Source: a virus
IMG/VR virus record: IMGVR_UViG_3300045988_130116
DNA length: 64,000 nucleotides
Strand: one strand, 5' to 3'
Position numbers and translations under genes: made by a program. The notes below the pieces were generated by a model. That model was given only the letters and a program-made list of their open reading frames with translations, did no database searches and was not told the origin of the DNA. This document shows positions 22,225 through 52,343 of the stretch, piece after piece (the first letter of the stretch is position 1; the number at the start of each line of letters is the position of its first letter).

Positions 22225-22292
22225 GGATATATAGTTTAACAGGCAAAATACTTACCGGAAAAGAGTTATAGGTTCGAGTCCTATTATATCCT
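22225..22292 (+). tRNA. tRNA-like gene, isotype unresolved (non-canonical anticodon arm)
   Basis: Perfect 7-bp acceptor stem GGATATA/TATATCC. T arm ATAGG-TTCGAGT-CCTAT. D loop with GG. Only 36 nt lie between acceptor and T arm. The best anticodon-stem foldings place C rather than U at position 33 (loop ACCGGAA or CCGGAAA). No encoded CCA. Confidence 0.5.
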
Positions 22293-22489
22293 CATGATAT
22301 AACCCCCTTTCAATTATATTATTATACTTAAAGACACATACAGCAATTTTTAAATACTTTATTTTATAAAAAACAATTTATATTAACTTAAATAGAATTT
22401 CATAAATACCTCCTTTGATTTAATGATATGTAAGAATGTGTCTTGTAATACCTCCTATAGGACTACTGAACGGGAAGTAGTCCTAATAT

Positions 22490-22558
22490 GACAAGGTGGA
22501 GTAATGGAAACTCGTTAGATTAATTCTAAAGATGTAGGTTCAAATCCTTCCCTTGTGA
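22490..22558 (+). tRNA. tRNA-like gene, non-canonical (anticodon loop AUUAAUU would give UAA)
   Basis: U8, D arm GAGT-AATGGAA-ACTC and T loop TTCAAAT are canonical. Deviations: G1xG72 mismatch, TxT mismatch in the T stem, no position 26, a 3-nt variable region, and U at position 37. It lacks the long variable arm expected of a bacterial tRNA-Leu(UAA). Confidence 0.45.
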
Positions 22559-22606
22559 ATATTTAACATTTTACCTTCTTTCTACCCCTCTTTTGAGGGG
22601 GCTTAT

Positions 22607-22681
22607 GCTGGTGTGGCTCAATGGCAGAGCAGCTGACTTGTAATCAGCAGGTTGTAGGTTCGACTCCTATCGCCAGCTCCA
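22607..22681 (+). tRNA. tRNA-Thr (anticodon UGU), CCA encoded
   Basis: Hand-folded cloverleaf: acceptor GCTGGTG/CGCCAGC, D arm GCTC-AATGGCA-GAGC, anticodon arm GCTGA-CTTGTAA-TCAGC, T arm GTAGG-TTCGACT-CCTAT, then TCCA. Confidence 0.85.
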
Positions 22682-42198: not shown

Positions 42199-45100
42199 TT
42201 GGCTGATGATATAAGAATTAGAGTCTATCCAACCGTTGATAAAGGACAATCAGCATCAGAGTTATCAAAAGTTATAGCAGATTTAGAAAAAAATGCTAAG
42301 AAAATAAAGGTTGGAATAGATGACAAAGAATTGCTTACACAAATTGAAAAACTTAAAGAGCAAATAAATAGCTTGACTAAAGGGTCAAATACAAAAGGCA
42401 ATTCTAAAATGTTTCAAGGCGAAGCAAAAAGTGCAAAAGAATTAGTCGCAGAATATAAAAAGTTAATATCTGAAAAAGATAAACTTGAAAAGAAAATGTC
42501 TAAACAGACATATCAAGGACAGGCTTATAAAGCTTTATCTAAAGATTTAACAAAAGTTAATAAAGACATTGAATCAGTTGGTAGTAAAATTGATGCTTTA
42601 AATAAAAAGAATATTAAATCTGATATTACTTCTAGTTTAAATTCTTCATTTGAATCAACAATTAAAAAGGTAACTGAATTAGGAACTTCTATCGAAAATG
42701 CTTTAGGGAAACGTAAACTTGCAGGTAATCAAGTAGCTGATATTAAGACTTTACAAAACCAAGTTGAAAAGTTTAAACAAGAAGCGAATCTTGAGAATAT
42801 ACTGAAAGCAGATAAACCATATGCTGAAATGTCTAAGTTAATCACTAAGGCAGATGAACTCTCTAGGTCTTTTAAGAAACTAGAATTATCAGATAATCTA
42901 GCTAGAAGTATAAGAAAAGCAGAGGCAGATGCGAGTATCCTTCAAAATAAGATTAAGTCCTTATATACAAAAGGGTATGGAGACAACAATTCTATTGATA
43001 AATTATTTACTAGAGCAAAAGAATTAAGCAATATTAATATAAGAGTTAATGGTAAAACAGCAGAAGCAGATTTAATTAATCTTAATAATAAAATAAAAGA
43101 TTTAGATACTGATTATAATAAGTTGGTAGCAGATATGCAAAGAAATAAAAAGATGGATGTTTTCAAAATAAATGTATCTGCATCAATGAAACAATTAGAA
43201 GAATTAAGAACTAAATTTACAAGTTTAGGGAAAGACACATCTCAAATAGATTCTTTAAAAACTAAGTTAGAAGGGTTAAATAAATTAACCTTTGCACAGG
43301 CACAAGAAGAATTTTCTAAAATAAAAACTCGAATAAGTGAAGTGTCAGGAGAAATACCAAAGGCTACTTCTGCTATGAATCAATTTAATAAGTTGATGAA
43401 TGAAAGAGCTTCTTTAGAAAAACAAATGTCTAAGACTACAAATAATCAATCTTATGCAGTTTTAAATAAGCAGTTAGATGAAAATTTAGTTAAGATTAGG
43501 AATGTATCTAAAGAGTTAGATGTATTAAAGAATAAGAATTTTGAACCAAATATAACTAAAAGTTTGGCAGCAACATTTAATCAATTACAAGATTCTGCAA
43601 CTAAAACATCTCAAACTATAGACAATATGTTCAAAAATAAGAATCTAACAGAAGGGCAAATCTCTCAATTAGAAGCTTTAAGAAAAGAAATGGATAGGAT
43701 TAAGGGTACGAAATTAGATAATATTCTAAACGTATCTAATTCTCATGAGACAATGTCTACGCTTTTATCTGACTTACAAAATGTAAAGAATATAGCGAAA
43801 AGTATAGAGATAAATGGTAATTTTAACTCAAGACTTGAAACTGCTTATAAGAAAGTAACAGATATTGGTTCAAAAATTGCTGATTTAAAAAATAAAGGAT
43901 TTACTGATAGTCCTCAAATGGTCGCAGACATTGATAAGGTAGTAGCATCTTATGAAAAATTAAAAAATGTAAAAATAAATATTAGTTCCGATACTGCGGT
44001 TTCAGAGTTAATGGAACTTAACCGTTCTATAGAGAAGACAGAATCAGAAATCCAAAGATTAAATAATGTTGCTAAAGCAAATAAGCAATCTTTTAAGATT
44101 GAAGCAGGTATAAGCGAATCTTTAAATAGATTGGGAGAATATAAACGTGTTATACAAACACTAGGAGAGAATACTGCCCCTGTTACTGCTTTAGAACAAA
44201 AATTATTAAATCTACTTGATTTACCTTATGACGAGGCATCTACAAGATTAAGTCAGGTAAATAAAGAAATCAATAAAATGATTCAAAATGCAACTGGTAT
44301 TAAATCTCAAACAGATGCTTTAAATGCCTTTAATAAGGCAATAACACAAAGAGATGCTTTAATTAAACAACTTGGAAAAACTCCTGTTGGGACAGAAACT
44401 TTTAAAGCTTTAGAATCAGAACTAGGTGTTGTTGAAGGTAAAATAAATACTATAGCTAAATTGCTTCCTAATATAAAGATTACCGGAACTTCAACAGAAA
44501 CAACTAAAGAATTTGCAAAATCTTTTGATAATGTACAAAAATCATTAACTAATGCAGAGAGCAAATTAAATGAATTTGGTAGCAAAACTAATCTTACAAA
44601 AGGGCAACTGCAAGAATTACAAAGTTTAATGACTCAATTAGGAAATCTTAAAATAACTAAATTTGGAGATATTTTAAGCAGTTCAGTTCCTTATAATGAA
44701 ATGACTAAATTAATACAAAGCACAAGAGAATTAGAAAATGCTTTATCTAATTTAGGTAAAAATATTAATTTTACAGGAAAACTTGATAGTCAGTTTAATA
44801 CTGCTATTAGTAAATTTAAGACTTTACAGTCTCAAATGGACTCCTTTAAAGTTACTAAAATGTTCGGAGATACAACTCAATTAGACAGATTAATTGAGAA
44901 AGCAGATAAATTATCTAAGACTAAAATAGATTTAGATTCAGAAGCAGCAGAGGCAGATATTCAAGATTTAATAAGATTAGCGAATGAATTAGAAAATGAA
45001 TTTAAGCAAGTTAAAGAAGTTTCTAAAATTAATGAAGGAAACTTTAATTTAGAGACTGCTCTTAAAAATGCAAATGCAACATTAGACCAATTACAAAGAA

Positions 45101-45804
45101 AATATCAGTCTATGGGTAAAGATGTTACACCTATAACTAATTTAAGAAATCAGTTAAATGGGCTAAATGGGGTCTCTTTAAAAGAAGCGGACGCTCAAAT
45201 CAGAAGTGTTACAAGTGAAGCAAGACTTTTAGATAAGGCACTTAGACAAACTGCAAGTTCTTCTAAACAAATGTCTTCAGCAGTAGCTACTTCTGCAAAG
45301 AAAACAAGTTCATTTGTCACTAATTTATATTCTACATTATCTACTTATTCATTAGGTAATATTTTAGGTATGCAAATAACTAAAGGTATCTATGCAATAA
45401 AAGAAACTATTGTAGATTTAGATAGTGCCTTCAGAGATATGGAAAAAGTTGCTCCTGCTAGTTTTACAGGAACAAAAGAAGAGCTACAAGAAGTTAAGGA
45501 ATTAGCGTTCCAAACAGGACAAGATGTTGCTAGAAGTTCTGTTGACATTATTAACTCGACTGCGGCAGCTTTCCAATTAGGTATAGATAATGTTAAACAA
45601 GCGATGGAATATGCAAAAGATGTAAATATGTATGCAAATGTCGCAGATGTTAATGAGGAAACAGCCGATAAGTATTTAAAAACTATAGCATCAGCTTATG
45701 GTGGTGTAACAAAATCATTAGAACCTATGACTCAAAAAGTTAAGGGTGCTAGTGATTCTTATAATATGTTAACTGATTATATGGATCAGGCAAACAAAAT
45801 TGCC
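42199..45804 (+). CDS. tape measure protein, exon 1 (1202 codons)
   Basis: TTG start after AAGGTGGTG. Long coiled-coil sequence with three ~320-aa internal repeats. The frame is closed by TAA at 45805-45807, at the start of the intron-like block. The exact 5' splice site (45804 or 45805) is uncertain. Confidence 0.75.
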
Positions 45805-45805
45805 T

Positions 45806-46250
45806 AATTGTCGAGAAATCGGCAATGGATTTACACAATTTGAATTGCAGGTAACTCCTAAAGCCTTGCACCACAATATCGGAGAAATCACGATATGAAG
45901 GTACGAAAGTAGAAACAACGCAAGGATAAGTATATGGTTAAACCCTAAGTACTTAGATATGGTTAAAGTAATTACCATATCACAATGGATGTTCATGCAG
46001 GTAAGGTTCTAAAGTCATTAAGACCAAGAACAAACTTCAACGACTATGCCTTTGGATGTTGAAATACATCAATAGCAGTACGGCTCAAGCTAATGGAGTG
46101 GGTGAGAATCCCTTAAATGGAAGTGGATTGCCCCTAACACATAATGGTGAGGGTGAAGAAATAGTCTGGACGCTTATCGAAAGATAAGGAAGTTCATAAG
46201 AGAACTGTATAGATGTAGCGAATCTATATGAACATTACGAAACTATGCAG
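45806..46250 (+). ncRNA. group I-like intron unit 1 (no ORF)
   Basis: GAAGAAATAGTCTGGAC (46155-46171) resembles the Tetrahymena J8/7-P7 element AAGAUAUAGUCGGAC. CAACGACTAT...AGTAC...TCAAGC lies at 46038-46090. GAAA-capped hairpins at 45812-45821 and 46173-46188. GC-richer than its flanks, with stops in all frames. Boundaries are approximate. Confidence 0.65.
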
Positions 46251-46271
46251 GTGAATGTAAATTAGTCGCCT
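46251..46271 (+). other. candidate 21-nt in-frame micro-exon between the two intron units
   Basis: GTGAATGTAAATTAGTCGCCT. If both units splice at GCCT| and GCAG|, it adds CECKLVA without a stop. Alternatively it is removed together with both units. Confidence 0.3.
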
Positions 46272-46611
46272 AGTAATACAAGCGATTGTATTATTTAACC
46301 TTTTGAATTGACTGGGAAACCCTTAGAGACTTAATACTACAACATAGCTAGAAATGGCAAGTGTGAATGTTTGAAAAATTTAAGGATTGGGTAATCAGCA
46401 GGTAAGATTCCCTATTGTAAAATACAATGAGAATAAACTCCAACGACTATTTTCGGCAGAAAAGTACACTCAAGCGAGTGGAAGTGGAAGGCTCTTGTTT
46501 TATAACAAGATGAAGATATAGTCTCGACTTCTAGTGAAAGCTAGAGAAGTTCATAAGAGAACTGTATGAGAAGTAGCGAACTCATATGAAGATAATCGAA
46601 CAACTTTGCAG
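46272..46611 (+). ncRNA. group I-like intron unit 2 (no ORF)
   Basis: GAAGATATAGTCTCGAC (46512-46528), CAACGACTAT...AGTAC...TCAAGC (46441-46475), and a GAAA hairpin at 46530-46545. Homologous to unit 1, with compensatory stem changes. The 3' end is either G46598 or G46611. Confidence 0.65.
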
Positions 46612-49600
46612 TCACTTCAGGTGACATAGGTGAAGCATTACAACGTTCTGCGTCACAATTAAAAGCAAACGGCAATAGCATGAGTGAAGCCATTGGTATG
46701 ATTGTTGGTGCTCAGGAAACAGTACAAGATGCTTCTAAATTAGGTAACGCATTAAAAACTATAGCAGTTAACATAAATGGGGTTACTTATAATGCTAAAG
46801 AAGGAGAAGTAACTCTTAATAAAACAGCGAAGGCATTAAGAGAAGTAGCAGGAATAGAAACTGCTGACTTAGCAAAAGGTACTACAAGACCTTTATTCGA
46901 TGTATTAAATGAATTACATGACAAATGGGATTCACTTAATGATGTTGAACAAAAAACAGTTACAGAAGCAATAGGTAGTAAATATCATGCCAACGTATTA
47001 CAGGCTATGCTAGATAACTGGGAAACAGTATTACAATACGTTCAAGAATATAATGAGGGATTTACTGTTGATTCTGCTAAACAAGAAAATGCTCGTTATA
47101 TAGACTCCCTTGAAGGGAAAATAGTGGCATTAAAAGACCAATTTAGAGATTTTATAACAACTGTAATATCAAGTGATATGACTAAAGGGTTAATTACTGG
47201 TTTTGCAGAAGTTATGGAAATTGTAAATAAGGTTACTAAATCATTAGATAGTATGGGTATGGCTCTACCTGCGACAATAGGGACTGTTGCAAGTTTATTT
47301 AGAACATTAAAGGCATCTGCTAAAGGAGAACAATTAACTCTATTTGGTAGTAGTTTTTATAATGACCTAAAGAAAGCACAAACCCAAACAAAAGTGGTAA
47401 CAAACCAATTAAAAGATTCCTCTGGTACTGTAACAAGTATGATTTCTAAAAATTCAAATAAACTAGCTGGTAATATTCAAACAAGTAATATGAGAATTCA
47501 AAAATCATTGGGGAGTTCTAATAAACAATTTAAAGTATACAGAAAAGATGCGACAGGAAATTTAAAACAAATAAGTAATACATATAGTAGTGCAACAATA
47601 GTTGCAGAAGAAACTCAAAAGGGACTTGGCAAAACAGCAGGGTCAATGGTGTTAGCAGGTGCTAAATCTATGGCTGCGTCCGTAGGTATATCATTATTGA
47701 ACGGAGCTATGATAACATTAGCCGCTACATTAATTGGTAATGTTATAGGAGCAGTAGATGATTATATTCATAGAACAGAAGATATGTACCAAAACACTAA
47801 AGAGAATATAGACAAAACACAAAAAGAAATCGGAGACTTAAATAGCAAAAAAAGTAGTTTAAAAAATATAGCCGATGATTTTGAAGAATTGTCAGGTAAA
47901 ATGAATCTTACTAGCGAGGAAGCCGAAAAACTATCTCAATATAAACAACAATTAGCAGAGATGTTCCCTGAGCTAGTGACTGGTTATGACGAAAACGGTG
48001 ACCCTTTATTAGCTTTAAGTGGCAGTGCCGATGATTTAATTGAAAAACTAGATATAGCAATTAAAAAGAAACAAGAATTGCTTAGATTAGAGGAAAAAGA
48101 TGCTGCCAATGAAGCAAGTAAAATGGTTGGTAAATACAGACAAGACCAAAAAGGAAATGTAGAGGATAATATAAAAAGAAATGCTCTTACAAACCCTTTC
48201 TTTGATTATTCTGTATTTAGTAATGGATTGGCTAACTATGAAAAAGGATGTAAAAGATACGAACAGATTGCACAAAATACAGCTGATAAAATCGCTTCAA
48301 TAAACAGTAGTAATTACGAAAAAAGTTCAAAATATTATTCATTAGAACAAGACCAACAAAAAGATGCTATGAATGAAATGAACAGAAATGTTCGCCAATA
48401 TAAAAACTATGCTAACCTTGGAGATACTCAAAAAGGTAAGTTAATAGAATTAATGGGCATATATGACTGGTCAAATGAATTAGTTGCAGAAAACATTAAT
48501 AAAAGAAATGACTTTTTAGCAGGGTTTGATAAAGTAGCCGATTATGCAGTAGATAACTATGATAAAGTTGAAGAATGGAATAAAACACTTAATGCGGCTA
48601 ATGATGCCTTCCAAGCAACAGGAAATATAGATGATTATAAAAAATCAATTTCCGGAGTGGCTGAAGAACTTGAAAAATTAACTGGAATAGATTCTAGTGA
48701 GTGGATTGAAAGTTTTGTTCCTCAATTACAAGGAAACCTACAACAAGATATGATAGAGCTAAACGGATTCTTAAAGGGATTTGGTAAGAATCTTATGGAT
48801 GTTAATTTAGGAGACGATATGGCTCTTCAACTTCAAAAACAATTTGATGACTTAAAAGAGGTAACCGATGAAATAGCGGGTAGTGACATTCCTATTGAAA
48901 CAAAAATAGACTTAGTTACTAAAATAGGTAAAAATGATGACCCATTTGTTGATTTACCACCTCAAATAAGAAATCTTATTCAAGGTATAACTGATGGCGG
49001 AGATAAGGTAACTACTACAGAATTAGAAGTAATAACAGCAATCTCTACGTCTTTTAAAAACACTGGTGGTATAGCAGATAATGAAAATCTTGAATTGATT
49101 AATAAGATGTTGAATGGGGAACTTACAGAGGCAGAATGTCAAGTAGGAATATCTCTTAAAGACGGAAATAAAATAAGCCCTGAGATAACTACAGCTATAA
49201 ACAATGCTCAAAAAGACAAAGATAATCAAATAAAAGTAGACCTAAATAAAGATTATCTTAAAGAGCAACTTGAAAATATTAAATCTGAAATAAAGAAATA
49301 TACTAAAGTAAGTGAAAACGAAAAAATATCAGACTTATTTACTAGCGGAACTATTGATACAAGTCAGTTAGAATATGTAAATAAATTACTTGAAAGTATG
49401 CCTTTTGGAGACAAGACTGTTGATTTAATTTGTGAATTAGGTGGAGCATTTAATAATGGGGAACTTACAAATTATAAAAGTATCATAGAATATTTGTTAG
49501 ACCATCCTAACATAGCAAATAAAGTTGGAGTCACAGTTGTAGGAGAAAAAACAGTAGATACTGTTAAAAATGAATTAGATAAATTCATGGAAACAGATGA

Positions 49601-52343
49601 AGAAAAAAAAATAGCAGTTAAAGTAGAGAATGGATTAGCGAAGGGCGACATAGTACAAGTAAGAGAGGCTTTAAACGAATTAGACGAGGAAAAAAGAGTT
49701 AAGGTCGTAAGTGATATAGTTGATGCTTTAGACGGATTAGATACTGTAGACGCTAGAACGATAAAAGAAAAACTTGTAAAATTCTTTATAGAAAAAGATG
49801 AAGTAGATGAAAAAACATCAGAAATAGAAGGTAAACCAGCAGAAAAATCAGTAGTATTTAAGAGCGAAAATTTCGCAGAAACATTAGGTCAAACTATTGA
49901 AATAGATGAAAAAGGTAATCCTGTTATAAAACCTATAAACTTCTCTACAAATGGATATACAGACACAGTAAATAAAACTGATACTGTTACTCAAAAATCC
50001 AAACCTGAAACTAAAAAGGTTACAATGGATGGTAAAAACGGATATACAGATACAGTAAACAAAGAAGATACTGTTACAAGAAAAGCTAAAAACGAGACTA
50101 AAAAAGTTACAATGGACGGTAAAAATGGGTTTACAGATACAGTAAATAAAGAAGATACCGTTACAAAAAAGGCTAAACCTGAAACTAAAAAAGTTACATT
50201 TATTGGTGCTATGTCAGACGGATTAAAGTCGATATTTAATAGAATAGATAAATTTATACAAGGCGCAAGTATCCCTGTAAGATTTGGTAGTGTTGAAGGA
50301 TTTAAGAATATTTCTGATACGCCTGTTGAAATAAACGCTCCATCTCCTCCTGTAACAGCTCAATCTGATGTTAGCATGAGTTCCGTTGACGGAGCATCTC
50401 CAACACCAACAGAAGGCACTGATGGGGTCTCTGCTACAGCATTTAAAGATTTTGGAGCAGTAGGTTCTAGCAAATCTACTAAAACAAAAATAGACATTAC
50501 TTCTAAAAATTTACTTTATGCTTTAAAGAACGGCATTAATATGTTCCAAGAATTAGAGAATAGAATTTCTCGTTGTACTAACCAACTAGCTTTATTAGAT
50601 AAAAAAATGGAACGTGCAACTGGAACAGAAAAAATAAAGAACTTAAAGAAACAAAATGAATTATACGAACAACAAGTTGGTTTACAAAAAGAATACTATG
50701 ATTCGTTAATGGACGAAAAGAAAATATTAAGAGAGCAACTAAAGAAAAAAGGATTTGCTTTTAATAATCAGGGAAATCTAATTAGCTATGAAGAAAAATT
50801 AGCCAAGATGCAAAAAGAATATGATAAATTAGAAAAAGCATATGATAAAGCTCAAAAATCAGAAAGTAATTATAAAGGCAAAAGCGACAAAAAGAAAAAA
50901 TCATATAGCAAAGCTACAGAAAATGCAAAAAACAAGTTAGATAAATATAAAGAAAAATTAGACGAAACAAAAGACCTTACAGAAGAATATATTAAAATCC
51001 AATATACAGATTTACCTAAAGCCGAACAAGAATGGCAAGATATGAAAAATGCTATTGAAGAAAATAAAGATGAGATTGAAAAACTTCTATTAGAGGATAG
51101 ACTTTATAAATTTAAAAATGGCGTGACTGAATTGTCTAACGAATTTAAAGTATTAGGTAATCAATTAGATTTATTAGACGCAAAATTAGAATATGCTACT
51201 GGTAAAGAAAAGGTTGATTTATACGGACAAGAAATTGAACAAATTGAAAAACAAAGAGCCAATCTTCAAAAAACAATAGACCAATATAATGAAATGGTAG
51301 ATGTTTATAAAGATAGTTTATCTTCATATGGATTTAAATTTGATGATAATAACAATGTGACAAATCAAAAAGAAATCTTAGACAAGTATCAAAACACAGA
51401 CGATTTAGAAAAAGTGACGGATTTACTTGAAGAATATATAAAACTTCAAACAGATGAATTGCCTGATGCCATCGTTCAATGGGAAGAATTAGGAAATAAA
51501 ATTAAAGATATCCAAAATGAAAAATTAGATATAGTAAAAGACATGGAAGAAGAAATCACAAAAGTATATGAAGATGAAATAGAAAAAAGAAAAGATGCAA
51601 TAGAAGAAGAAAAAGATGCAAGAGTTAAGGCTTTAGAAGAACAAAAAAAGGCTTATCAAGACTATAGAAGCGAAGTTGATTATAAAGATGATTATAATGA
51701 ACAATTAGATAAAATTAATAAATTAAAAAGTAAGATTTCTGTACTTGAAAGAGATACTTCTTTAGCTTCGAGAAGTAAGTTGCAAGAAGCTTATGATGAA
51801 TTAGCAGAAGAAGAAAAGGCGTTAAAAGATATTCAACAAGACAGATTGGATGAAAAAATTGAAAATATGTATGATGATGAAATAGATAAAGCAGAAAAAG
51901 AATCAGAAGATAAAATAAAGGCACTTGAGAATTTATGGACGCCTGAAAAAATAGCAGAAATGGTTACAAAGAATTTGTCTACTAATACTTTTACAGATTT
52001 AGATGGGAATGTTAAAAATCTACAAGATACGCTTATAGAATTTGCAGAAACTTCAGGAGACGCATTGGGTATAATGGGAGATTCTATTAAAAATGATTTA
52101 ATTAATAACTTACAAATTGCAACAGATGTATTAAAACAATATACGGATATATATAATTCTTTAGGCTTAAAACAATATGGAACAAATTATAAAGATATGT
52201 ATGACAATAAAAATCCTCGTAATACAAATCTTCAATTAGGAGGCATACATGTTAATATTCAAGGAAATCCTGACGAAGTTACGATTAACAAATTAACAAA
52301 GGCAATAGAAGAAGAATTTAAATATATTTCAAATAAATTATAG
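46599..52343 (+). CDS. tape measure protein, exon 2 (about 1910 codons)
   Basis: The frame is open from 46599, but the first ATG is at 46680. The codons before it (NNFAVTSGDIGEALQRSASQLKANGNS) form the conserved TMP core motif and contain no start codon. MSEAIGMIVGAQETVQDASKLGNALKTIA continues the TP901-type core. Terminator at 52342-52371. Confidence 0.75.
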   Translation, partial: NNFAVTSGDIGEALQRSASQLKANGNSMSEAIGMIVGAQETVQDASKLGNALKTIAVNINGVTYNAKEGEVTLNKTAKALREVAGIETADLAKGTTRPLFDVLNELHDKWDSLNDVEQKTVTEAIGSKYHANVLQAMLDNWETVLQYVQEYNEGFTVDSAKQENARYIDSLEGKIVALKDQFRDFITTVISSDMTKGLITGFAEVMEIVNKVTKSLDSMGMALPATIGTVASLFRTLKASAKGEQLTLFGSSFYNDLKKAQTQTKVVTNQLKDSSGTVTSMISKNSNKLAGNIQTSNMRIQKSLGSSNKQFKVYRKDATGNLKQISNTYSSATIVAEETQKGLGKTAGSMVLAGAKSMAASVGISLLNGAMITLAATLIGNVIGAVDDYIHRTEDMYQNTKENIDKTQKEIGDLNSKKSSLKNIADDFEELSGKMNLTSEEAEKLSQYKQQLAEMFPELVTGYDENGDPLLALSGSADDLIEKLDIAIKKKQELLRLEEKDAANEASKMVGKYRQDQKGNVEDNIKRNALTNPFFDYSVFSNGLANYEKGCKRYEQIAQNTADKIASINSSNYEKSSKYYSLEQDQQKDAMNEMNRNVRQYKNYANLGDTQKGKLIELMGIYDWSNELVAENINKRNDFLAGFDKVADYAVDNYDKVEEWNKTLNAANDAFQATGNIDDYKKSISGVAEELEKLTGIDSSEWIESFVPQLQGNLQQDMIELNGFLKGFGKNLMDVNLGDDMALQLQKQFDDLKEVTDEIAGSDIPIETKIDLVTKIGKNDDPFVDLPPQIRNLIQGITDGGDKVTTTELEVITAISTSFKNTGGIADNENLELINKMLNGELTEAECQVGISLKDGNKISPEITTAINNAQKDKDNQIKVDLNKDYLKEQLENIKSEIKKYTKVSENEKISDLFTSGTIDTSQLEYVNKLLESMPFGDKTVDLICELGGAFNNGELTNYKSIIEYLLDHPNIANKVGVTVVGEKTVDTVKNELDKFMETDEEKKIAVKVENGLAKGDIVQVREALNELDEEKRVKVVSDIVDALDGLDTVDARTIKEKLVKFFIEKDEVDEKTSEIEGKPAEKSVVFKSENFAETLGQTIEIDEKGNPVIKPINFSTNGYTDTVNKTDTVTQKSKPETKKVTMDGKNGYTDTVNKEDTVTRKAKNETKKVTMDGKNGFTDTVNKEDTVTKKAKPETKKVTFIGAMSDGLKSIFNRIDKFIQGASIPVRFGSVEGFKNISDTPVEINAPSPPVTAQSDVSMSSVDGASPTPTEGTDGVSATAFKDFGAVGSSKSTKTKIDITSKNLLYALKNGINMFQELENRISRCTNQLALLDKKMERATGTEKIKNLKKQNELYEQQVGLQKEYYDSLMDEKKILREQLKKKGFAFNNQGNLISYEEKLAKMQKEYDKLEKAYDKAQKSESNYKGKSDKKKKSYSKATENAKNKLDKYKEKLDETKDLTEEYIKIQYTDLPKAEQEWQDMKNAIEENKDEIEKLLLEDRLYKFKNGVTELSNEFKVLGNQLDLLDAKLEYATGKEKVDLYGQEIEQIEKQRANLQKTIDQYNEMVDVYKDSLSSYGFKFDDNNNVTNQKEILDKYQNTDDLEKVTDLLEEYIKLQTDELPDAIVQWEELGNKIKDIQNEKLDIVKDMEEEITKVYEDEIEKRKDAIEEEKDARVKALEEQKKAYQDYRSEVDYKDDYNEQLDKINKLKSKISVLERDTSLASRSKLQEAYDELAEEEKALKDIQQDRLDEKIENMYDDEIDKAEKESEDKIKALENLWTPEKIAEMVTKNLSTNTFTDLDGNVKNLQDTLIEFAETSGDALGIMGDSIKNDLINNLQIATDVLKQYTDIYNSLGLKQYGTNYKDMYDNKNPRNTNLQLGGIHVNIQGNPDEVTINKLTKAIEEEFKYISNKL
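49950..50210 (+). repeat. three tandem 87-nt (29-aa) coding repeats in the tape measure gene
   Basis: NGYTDTVNKTDTVTQKSKPETKKVTMDGK / NGYTDTVNKEDTVTRKAKNETKKVTMDGK / NGFTDTVNKEDTVTKKAKPETKKVTFIGA. Confidence 0.85.

Follow-up and report, generated by a model that had tools for sequence, protein, structure and literature searches.

The window analyzed in this study is the complete 64,000-nucleotide stretch of IMG/VR virus record IMGVR_UViG_3300045988_130116, in which the coding sequence of a phage tape measure protein (TMP) is distributed over two open reading frames (ORFs). The first, of 1202 codons, spans positions 42199-45807 and ends in ...DQANKIA followed by a stop codon; in the next long ORF, the first ATG lies at 46680, and the frame is open from 46596/46599, reading NNFAVTSGDIGEALQRSAS..., all as listed in an earlier reading of the bare sequence (hereafter, the original prediction). 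No Shine-Dalgarno sequence or ribosome-binding site was found upstream of the ATG at 46680. The identical 1202-aa ORF was present on seven ENA contigs, in which gene callers likewise split the gene in two. The block between the ORFs consists of two units with 8-12 stops per frame in each, contains no ORF longer than 44 aa and no homing-endonuclease ORF, and is richer in GC than its flanks, although the difference is modest (0.377 and 0.353 versus 0.318 and 0.326). The original prediction had regarded the ORFs as halves of one gene interrupted by two tandem group I ribozymes, and both points are borne out below, with revised splice sites. Overall, it is very likely that one gene for a 3116-aa TMP is split here by two independent ORF-less group I introns at adjacent sites, named A' and A, lying 13 nt apart.

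Two group I ribozymes within one tape measure gene

The three exons (Table 1), when joined, gave 9351 nt encoding 3116 aa with one terminal stop. Across the junction, the product reads DYMDQA-NYAG-NNFAVTSGD and agrees, exactly and without gaps, with ANYAGNNFAV, the family motif in the Clostridioides phage homologs. In addition, the tape measure core domain PF10145 (PhageMin_Tail) spans the junction: in a joined query of 340 aa with the junction at residue 151/152, it matched residues 50-275 with 63.3 bits (cut-off, 33.2). The closest isolates by tblastn were large Clostridioides phages of the phiCD211 group (LN681537, CP069348, MF547663, and others; 43-50% identity). More distant homologs, without an interruption at the junction, were found in Brevibacillus phage Sundance, the Bacillus Tsamsa group, and Enterocloster phages, and the local sequence in homologs is ...D-L-A-N-Y-A-G-N-N-F-A-V-T-T-G-D....

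Both units of the intervening block matched the Rfam covariance model RF00028. The second unit was matched at 46257-46546 with 81.5 bits (E 3.8e-19; model positions 1-253, complete), and the first at 45777-46189 with 46.1 bits (E 2.3e-10; local 1-kb search, full model matched). From these matches, 45792-46598 holds a tandem of two complete group I ribozymes, both on the coding strand. The P3-P4-P6-P7-P8 core, the P3/P7 pseudoknot, and the J8/7 sequence, GAAGA(A/U)AUAGUC, were all paired or present in both units, and P7 is the same in both introns. The elements that the original prediction had picked out by eye were recovered, namely the J8/7-P7 elements (GAAGAAATAGTCTGGAC at 46155 and GAAGATATAGTCTCGAC at 46512), the P4-J4/5-like segment CAACGACTAT in both units, the hairpins CTTATC-GAAA-GATAAG and TCTAGT-GAAA-GCTAGA, and the stems TATAGAT/ATCTATA and TATGAG/CTCATA. 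The two introns share the same architecture, whereas the sequences of most helices differ (P2, P3, P4, P8, P9, P9.2, and also P6) with pairing kept. Hairpins fill the interval between P7 and P3' (P7.1/P7.2), as in subgroup IA, and P9.1 and P9.2 are present in both units; by these features, both introns appear to be of subgroup IA type. Their cores are 78-83% identical to the lysK intron of Staphylococcus phage K and to the introns of Bacillus AR9/PBS1. The P1 helices placed by Rfam (45781-45808 in unit 1 and 46261-46274 in unit 2) were rejected because they disagree with the boundaries obtained from empty alleles.

A 22-mer across P9.1 (GAAGTTCATAAGAGAACTGTAT) occurs twice in the window, compared with 0 copies expected by chance, and was present at 68 IMG/VR loci, which define a widespread family of phage introns. 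Among 54 distinct 3' domains of this family, 99.4% of the P9 cells were paired; double-sided changes numbered 122, which 0 of 500 shuffles reached, and a slid register paired in at most 56%. The inner pairs of P9.2 switch among AT, GC, TA, and CG; they were counted by an anchored script, as the gap placement of MAFFT shifted the register. One P9 pair in the structure string was assigned to a gap column (32-42), which left the P9 result unaffected. The compensatory change that the original prediction had noticed between the two units is therefore seen across the family as covariation in P9 and P9.2.

Table 1. Coordinates of the exons, introns, and intron helices in the window (^, splice or insertion point; P1 loops in parentheses)
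Feature	Position	Strand	Evidence or remark
Exon 1 of the tape measure gene	42199..45791	+	start as given by the ORF lister; last base C45791 (...GAT CAG GC)
Intron 1, group I, 448 nt, ORF-less, ends G46239	45792..46239	+	RF00028, single-intron relatives L008-L010
Intron 1 P1, AGGC^AA (ACAAAA) UU GCCU	45788..45805	+	6/6 positions pair
Intron 1 internal guide sequence, GCCU	45802-45805	+	
Intron 1 P2, UUGUCGA-GAAA-UCGGCAA	45808..45825	+	7-bp stem, GAAA tetraloop
Intron 1 catalytic core	45836..46166	+	
Intron 1 P3, CAAUUU/GGAUUG	45836-41/46125-30	+	
Intron 1 P4	45846-51/45993-99	+	
Intron 1 extended P5	45852-45992	+	
Intron 1 P6	~46006-46031	+	
Intron 1 P7, GACUAU/AUAGUC	46042-47/46161-66	+	
Intron 1 P7.1/P7.2	46048-46124	+	
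Intron 1 P8	~46132-46153	+	
Intron 1 P9 (46173-46188), P9.1 (46191-46206), P9.2 (46207-46229)	46173..46229	+	family covariation
Micro-exon, 13 nt, A AAC TAT GCA GGT	46240..46252	+	single-intron alleles, L089, family motif
Intron 2, group I, 346 nt, ORF-less, ends G46598	46253..46598	+	RF00028, site-A-only relatives
Intron 2 P1, AGGU^GA (AUGUAAAUUAG) UC GCCU	46249..46271	+	U46252.G46268 wobble at splice site
Intron 2 internal guide sequence, GCCU	46268-46271	+	
Intron 2 P2 and core	46275..46523	+	
Intron 2 P2, AAUACAA-GCGA-UUGUAUU	46275-81/46286-92	+	GCGA loop
Intron 2 P3, CCUUUU/GGAAGG	46299-304/46486-91	+	
Intron 2 P4	46309-15/46395-400	+	
Intron 2 P7, GACUAU/AUAGUC	46445-50/46518-23	+	
Intron 2 P7.1/7.2	46451-46485	+	
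Intron 2 P8	46493-46510	+	
Intron 2 P9 (46529-46546), P9.1 (46548-46563), P9.2 (46564-46587)	46529..46587	+	family covariation
Exon 3, starting AAC AAC TTT GCA GTC (NNFAV)	46599..52343	+	

Boundaries from relatives with a single intron

Site A' lies inside the codon before NYAG, and site A lies between NYAG and NNFAV. The Clostridioides phage LIBA2945 is interrupted at site A' (cu^a aac tat gca ggg aat aat), and the Clostridioides phage pCD1602_4 at site A (gct ggt^...^aat aat ttt). In the window, G46239 is followed by the bases for (A)NYAG and G46598 by those for NNFAV. Taken together with the cut points in the two isolates, this suggested that both sites are occupied in the window, with a 13-nt exon between them.

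Relatives in IMG/VR fall into two allele classes. In L008, L009, and L010 (97-98% protein identity), an intron is present at site A' but not at site A, and the gene reads GATCAGGC^AAACAAAATTGCCTAATTGTCG...ACATTACG^AAACTATGCAGGTAACAACTTTGCAGTC, L008 having GCCGGC instead of GCAGGT (two bases), and the 13 nt of the micro-exon are joined directly to exon 3 in L009 and L010. In L011, L012, L014, and L015 (98%) and in L017-L019 (72-83%), site A is occupied and site A' is empty. These alleles read GATCAGGCAAACTATGCGGGT^GAATGTAAACTAATCGCCCAGTAATAC...GACAACCG^AACAACTTTGCAGTC with GATCAGGCAAACTATGCGGGT unbroken, and in L011-L015 the micro-exon stretch is joined to exon 1 with one synonymous difference (GCG for GCA). 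Therefore, both introns are delimited to the base. The terminal (omega) G expected of a group I intron was found in each, as comparison with the empty alleles shows the insertions to end with G46239 and G46598. Alignment with intron-less and single-intron TMP homologs thus located the insertion sites, and excision of each intron restores a frame colinear with the intron-less alleles.

The same tandem layout was found by searching with the junction of intron 1, micro-exon, and intron 2, in a single metagenome contig, OWIM01000010.1 (L089), in which intron 1 has 464 nt, the micro-exon AAACTATGCGGGT 13 nt, and intron 2 1124 nt. This contig is 96.9% identical to the window over 11.9 kb and therefore represents a different genome. 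The tandem junction search gave no match in IMG/VR. In P1 of intron 2, the canonical U stands at the 5' splice site, and the exon and the internal guide sequence (IGS) change in a compensatory manner: GCA GGU occurs with GCCU in the window and L020, versus GCG GGU with GCCC in L011, L012, L014, L015, L017, and L089.

These boundaries differ by 11-19 nt from those of the original prediction. Its GCCT, taken as the end of each 5' exon, is the intron-internal IGS in both cases and pairs in P1 with AGGC (intron 1) or AGGU (intron 2), and its TGCAG, taken as the end of each intron, is exon sequence (GCA-GGT and GCA-GTC codons). A micro-exon between the introns does exist, as had been proposed, with 13 nt in place of the supposed 21 nt at 46251-46271. 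Splicing at GCCT^ and TGCAG^ to include those 21 nt would be in frame and stop-free (...ANKIA-CECKLVA-FTSGD...), and both motifs are present in the sequence. Nevertheless, it would destroy NNFAV, which is intact at 46599-46613, and would add residues that no homolog has. Moreover, GAATGTAAACTAATCGCCC comes after the GGT of an uninterrupted exon in L011-L015, hence it is intron, and the GCCU on which this scheme relies pairs as the IGS in P1. The CECKLVA peptide is thus contradicted by the relatives, and we give this scheme practically no probability.

The original prediction also offered removal of the entire block 45805-46598, giving ...ANKIA-NNFAV.... The product length would be colinear with the homologs, and an alternative AUUGCC/GGCAAU pairing (45799-804 with 45821-826) could mimic P1; however, this P1 would break the conserved P2 hairpin and would still have no U.G pair. 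From the single-intron relatives, AAACAAAATTGCC... can be assigned to the intron and NYAG to the exon sequence, and the 13 nt after G46239 match the exon of L009, L010, and LIBA2945. The codons KIA and the stop that close the 1202-aa ORF (45796-45807) are thus read-through into intron 1, the colinearity is accidental, and removal as a single block is highly improbable. By comparison, the order exon 1, intron 1, 13-nt micro-exon, intron 2, and exon 3 can be assigned to the gene with high confidence.

The micro-exon encodes the third base of an Ala codon and Asn-Tyr-Ala-Gly, and its last four bases, AGGU, form the 5'-exon strand of P1 in intron 2. Ligation of exon 1 straight to exon 3 shifts the frame (DQATTLQSLQVT, with a stop after 10 codons), and the micro-exon is therefore obligatory. 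Retention of intron 2 ends translation after NYAGECKLVA, and the unspliced RNA would encode the 1202-aa product ending in KIA.

In the proposed scheme, each intron would fold as its own ribozyme from P1 to P9.2, with P7.1/P7.2, and its own IGS (GCCU in both) would pair with the last four upstream exon bases, that is, AGGC of exon 1 or AGGU of the micro-exon. Cleavage initiated by guanosine would follow C45791 and U46252, and ligation of the exons behind the terminal G46239 and the terminal G46598 would yield exon 1, the micro-exon, and exon 3 in continuity (...DQA-NYAG-NNFAV...). The predicted spliced junction is GATCAGGC^AAACTATGCAGGT^AACAACTTTGC, i.e., CAGGC^AAACTATG at the end of exon 1, and the predicted junction-spanning peptide is DQANYAGNNFAV; exon skipping would read GATCAGGC-AACAACTTT. 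The shared GCCU makes cross-recognition of both 5' splice sites conceivable, and a product made by skipping would be out of frame. Together with the shared guide, an exon of 13 nt makes this locus a natural setting in which to study how neighbouring ribozymes prevent the skipping of an exon.

A C-G pair at the predicted 5' splice site of intron 1

Several points weigh against the two-intron structure. First, the splice-site pair of intron 1, C45791-G45802, is a Watson-Crick pair and not a U.G wobble. The original prediction had been unable to derive a P1 with such a wobble; we found a P1 for both introns, with the U.G pair in intron 2 only. Second, the 46.1 bits of intron 1 fall under the curated Rfam gathering score of 50 bits; the large P5 and P7.1/7.2 insertions cost bits, and the model misplaces P1. 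Third, P10 has merely 2 bp in intron 1, where the intron and the micro-exon both start with AAAC, and a search for P10 in intron 2 found none. Fourth, no close relative (>70% identity) lacking both introns was found. Finally, the whole case comes from the comparison of DNA, from which we infer splicing of both ribozymes in vivo as well as its order and efficiency.

Relative to the empty allele, the insertion of intron 1 is flanked by AAAC on both sides, which leaves five formal cut positions. None of the five has a U at -1, and the cut after C45791 alone leaves a terminal G; cleavage at this position is likely. The C-G pair is also present in L008-L010 and L089, thus in five contigs including the window, as a natural departure from a near-universal rule. 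In contrast, a U.G wobble was found in every other delimited intron of the family or neighbourhood, comprising intron 2, the site-A introns of L020 and pCD1602_4, the site-A' intron of LIBA2945, the first intron of L020, and the third TMP intron of L009, which follows CUGGU^ with the guide sequence GCCA. A literature search for natural group I introns with C at -1 found nothing specific. In the Tetrahymena ribozyme, a C-G pair at this position reportedly slows the first step without abolishing specificity.

A 5' splice site after U45800 (...DQANKI-NYAG-NNFAV...) would restore the U at -1 and keep the product in frame. However, no convincing P1 puts U45800 opposite a G, the three extra residues (N-K-I) are absent from every homolog, and comparison with the empty allele gives AAAC...ACG as the exact insertion, so that this site is very unlikely to be used. 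All the other enumerated combinations of a U-ending 5' site and a G-ending 3' site gave stops or frameshifts and were rejected.

A disabling C-G pair would also fit a locus in which the ribozymes are dead relics and two separate tail proteins of 1202 aa and 1887 aa are made, as gene callers annotate here and in phiCD211. Under this explanation, the PF10145 domain would be halved, and the part beginning with NNFAV would be left without a start codon or ribosome-binding site. Furthermore, the micro-exon and both P1 helices are kept in diverged genomes, with compensatory change, and intron 1 is the sole insertion at this junction in at least three contigs. We consider dead relics scarcely plausible. 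Since at least three contigs carry intron 1 alone at this junction, we infer that it still splices.

It is possible, though on balance doubtful, that intron 1 is naturally functional with its C-G pair and reached a near-cognate site by ectopic, IGS-directed transposition resembling reverse splicing. As part of this tentative proposal, the near-cognate site CAGGC^AAAC...TGCAG lies 13 nt upstream of the family-standard site CAGGU^AAC...TGCAG and is served by the same GCCU guide. If this were true, the competition between inclusion of the exon and its frameshifting skipping, together with the slow C-G first step, would cap the amount of full-length TMP.

Origin of the intron pair and comparison with known systems

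The original prediction had described the units as homologous. This holds at the level of the family, but local tandem duplication was rejected, as the 3' domains share 62% identity and place each other 41st and 48th among 52, and each has relatives of 89-94% identity elsewhere. For the 3' domain of unit 1, the identity is 93% with the site-A' intron of L008 and 89% with an intron at another locus (L045); for that of unit 2, the site-A introns of L011, L014, and L017 give 90-94%. The 5' part of intron 1 is ~99% identical to the site-A' intron of L008-L010. The two sites were probably colonized in separate events, or the pair was assembled by recombination of genomes that each had a single site filled; the endonuclease ORFs would then have been lost. 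The target sites are alike (TCAGGC^AAAC-TATGCAGG and GCAGGT^AACAACTTTGCAGT), which fits the shared guide sequence and may explain why related introns lie side by side.

Within intron 1, the segment 46167-46239 differs from L008, L009, and L089 by blocks of compensatory changes in P9 and P9.2, and these blocks match the L045 intron. This pattern suggests patchwise recombination between introns of the family.

Introns of the relatives carry a homing-endonuclease ORF in or after P6, and the window copies have lost ORFs that these relatives keep. The site-A' intron of L009 encodes a 246-aa CapR-domain protein (PHROG 559 'HNH endonuclease', 2e-62; also PHROG 9084 'homing endonuclease'). At site A, the introns of L011 and L089 encode a LAGLIDADG enzyme (LAGLIDADG_2, PF03161, 4e-20), and L012 shares the L011 intron sequence where compared. 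The site-A intron of L014 encodes a 234-aa zinc-ribbon nuclease, assigned by motif comparison alone to the same family as the L009 ORF; this ORF was read in L014 only, while L015 shares the 3'-domain sequence and L017-L019 are alike just upstream of the core. The site-A intron is ORF-less in the window and L020. The loci compared were L011:2124-2828, L014:2135-2839, intron 2 of L089, and 46371-46431 of the window. This looks like swapping and loss of endonuclease genes within one site-A intron lineage. In L009 (2790-2835), the 3' end of the endonuclease ORF enters the ribozyme core, its last codons overlapping J6/7-P7 (CAACGACTATGCG...), and the ORF deletion in intron 1 of the window (region 46026-46060) stops just upstream of the J6/7-P7 element.

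Intron insertion in the TMP gene of this phage group is not confined to A' and A, and the gene is a hot spot. Further insertions were located, by query residue, at 160/161 (ES-S-0107-01), ~197 (phiCD211, pCD1602_4, and L020), and ~275-279 (ES-S-0173-01, AR1086-1, and pCD1602_4), and after 98 (L020), and pCD1602_4 has three introns inside 340 codons. L009 contains another intron of the family ~1.4 kb farther downstream (L009:4404-4921), at a point where the window has no interruption (47985-47989). The introns of phiCD211 and pCD1602_4 were mapped from tblastn gaps, and an Rfam search at E<=0.01 over these loci (L001 and L002) gave no group I match; they may be too divergent for the current model or filtered out at that search size.

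The introns of LIBA2945 and pCD1602_4 lie exactly at the sites filled in the window, but in none of the large Clostridioides phages compared are A' and A filled together. The introns of these phages belong to other lineages, without a match to the family 22-mer. The intron of phiCD211 itself is at a third site, ~45 codons downstream, and its GenBank record annotates Intron_gpI between the two TMP pieces. Taken with its relatives, the locus illustrates how introns spread and decay within a single gene, at different stages: A' and A are filled either alone or both at once, one site exists in three endonuclease states, and the relatives have at least six additional insertion points in this gene. 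For annotation, gene callers split this gene and the TMP genes of phiCD211-like Clostridioides phages, whereas the correct product here would be one 3116-aa protein, including four residues from a 13-nt exon that no ORF finder would report.

Tandem group I introns with a short exon between them are already known. In the tail tube gene orf142 of phage Twort, related IA2 introns 2 and 3 flank a 23-nt exon, and both splicing and exon skipping were detected by reverse transcription PCR (Landthaler & Shub 1999, as recounted in PMC10136302 and PMC11878797); cross-recognition of the 5' splice sites was proposed there as the skipping mechanism (PMC10136302). As in the window, two related group I introns with a very short exon between them lie in a phage tail structural gene and share sequence that makes exon skipping mechanistically possible. 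The Twort introns are described as highly similar, unlike those of the window, with 62% identity in the 3' domain; here, the exon has 13 nt, the gene is that of the TMP, splicing is predicted, and skipping would cause a frameshift.

TMP genes of Bacillus cereus-group prophages carry the group I introns IVS1-IVS3 at three sites (Tourasse & Kolsto 2008, PMC2504315). As in the present group, the TMP gene is a recurrent target at several sites, related introns (IA2 in the prophages) are fitted to their sites via P1 and the IGS, one site can host different introns, some endonucleases have been lost, and presence is patchy (PMC2504315). Unlike the window, those sites are separate, with no pair 13 nt apart reported, and all three introns obey the U rule stressed in that study, whereas intron 1 follows a C. 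A short exon between two group I introns also occurs in the 23S rRNA of Coxiella burnetii (34 nt; PMC10136302) and in the mitochondrial cox1 of placozoans (1 nt, between group IB introns; PMC5436844). The former gene encodes rRNA and the latter is organellar, and their introns belong to subgroups IB2/IA3 and IB, respectively. The present locus is distinguished by the 13-nt exon, the shared guide, the C-G pair, and unusually complete comparative evidence. In our non-systematic survey of the literature, the exon is shorter than the bacterial and phage cases of 23 nt (Twort) and 34 nt (Coxiella) cited in PMC10136302, which were the sole cases from bacteria or phages to be found.

In a scan of bacterial genomes, the sole match was CALEJY010000250.1 (L090, 81.6 kb), in a metagenome-assembled genome labelled 'Candidatus Melainabacteria', which carries the TMP gene of this phage with the site-A intron and probably represents phage DNA that was wrongly binned. 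Given the homologs of the TMP, the host is most likely a low-GC Firmicute. The spliced TMP gene at 42199-52343 would encode 3116 aa, and at ~1.5 angstrom per residue this length would imply a very long tail of roughly 450 nm. Additionally, a small tRNA cluster was identified at 22225-22681 in the window, with three Rfam matches (22225-22292, 22490-22558, and 22607-22678) and two calls by ARAGORN, Leu-TAA and Thr-TGT.

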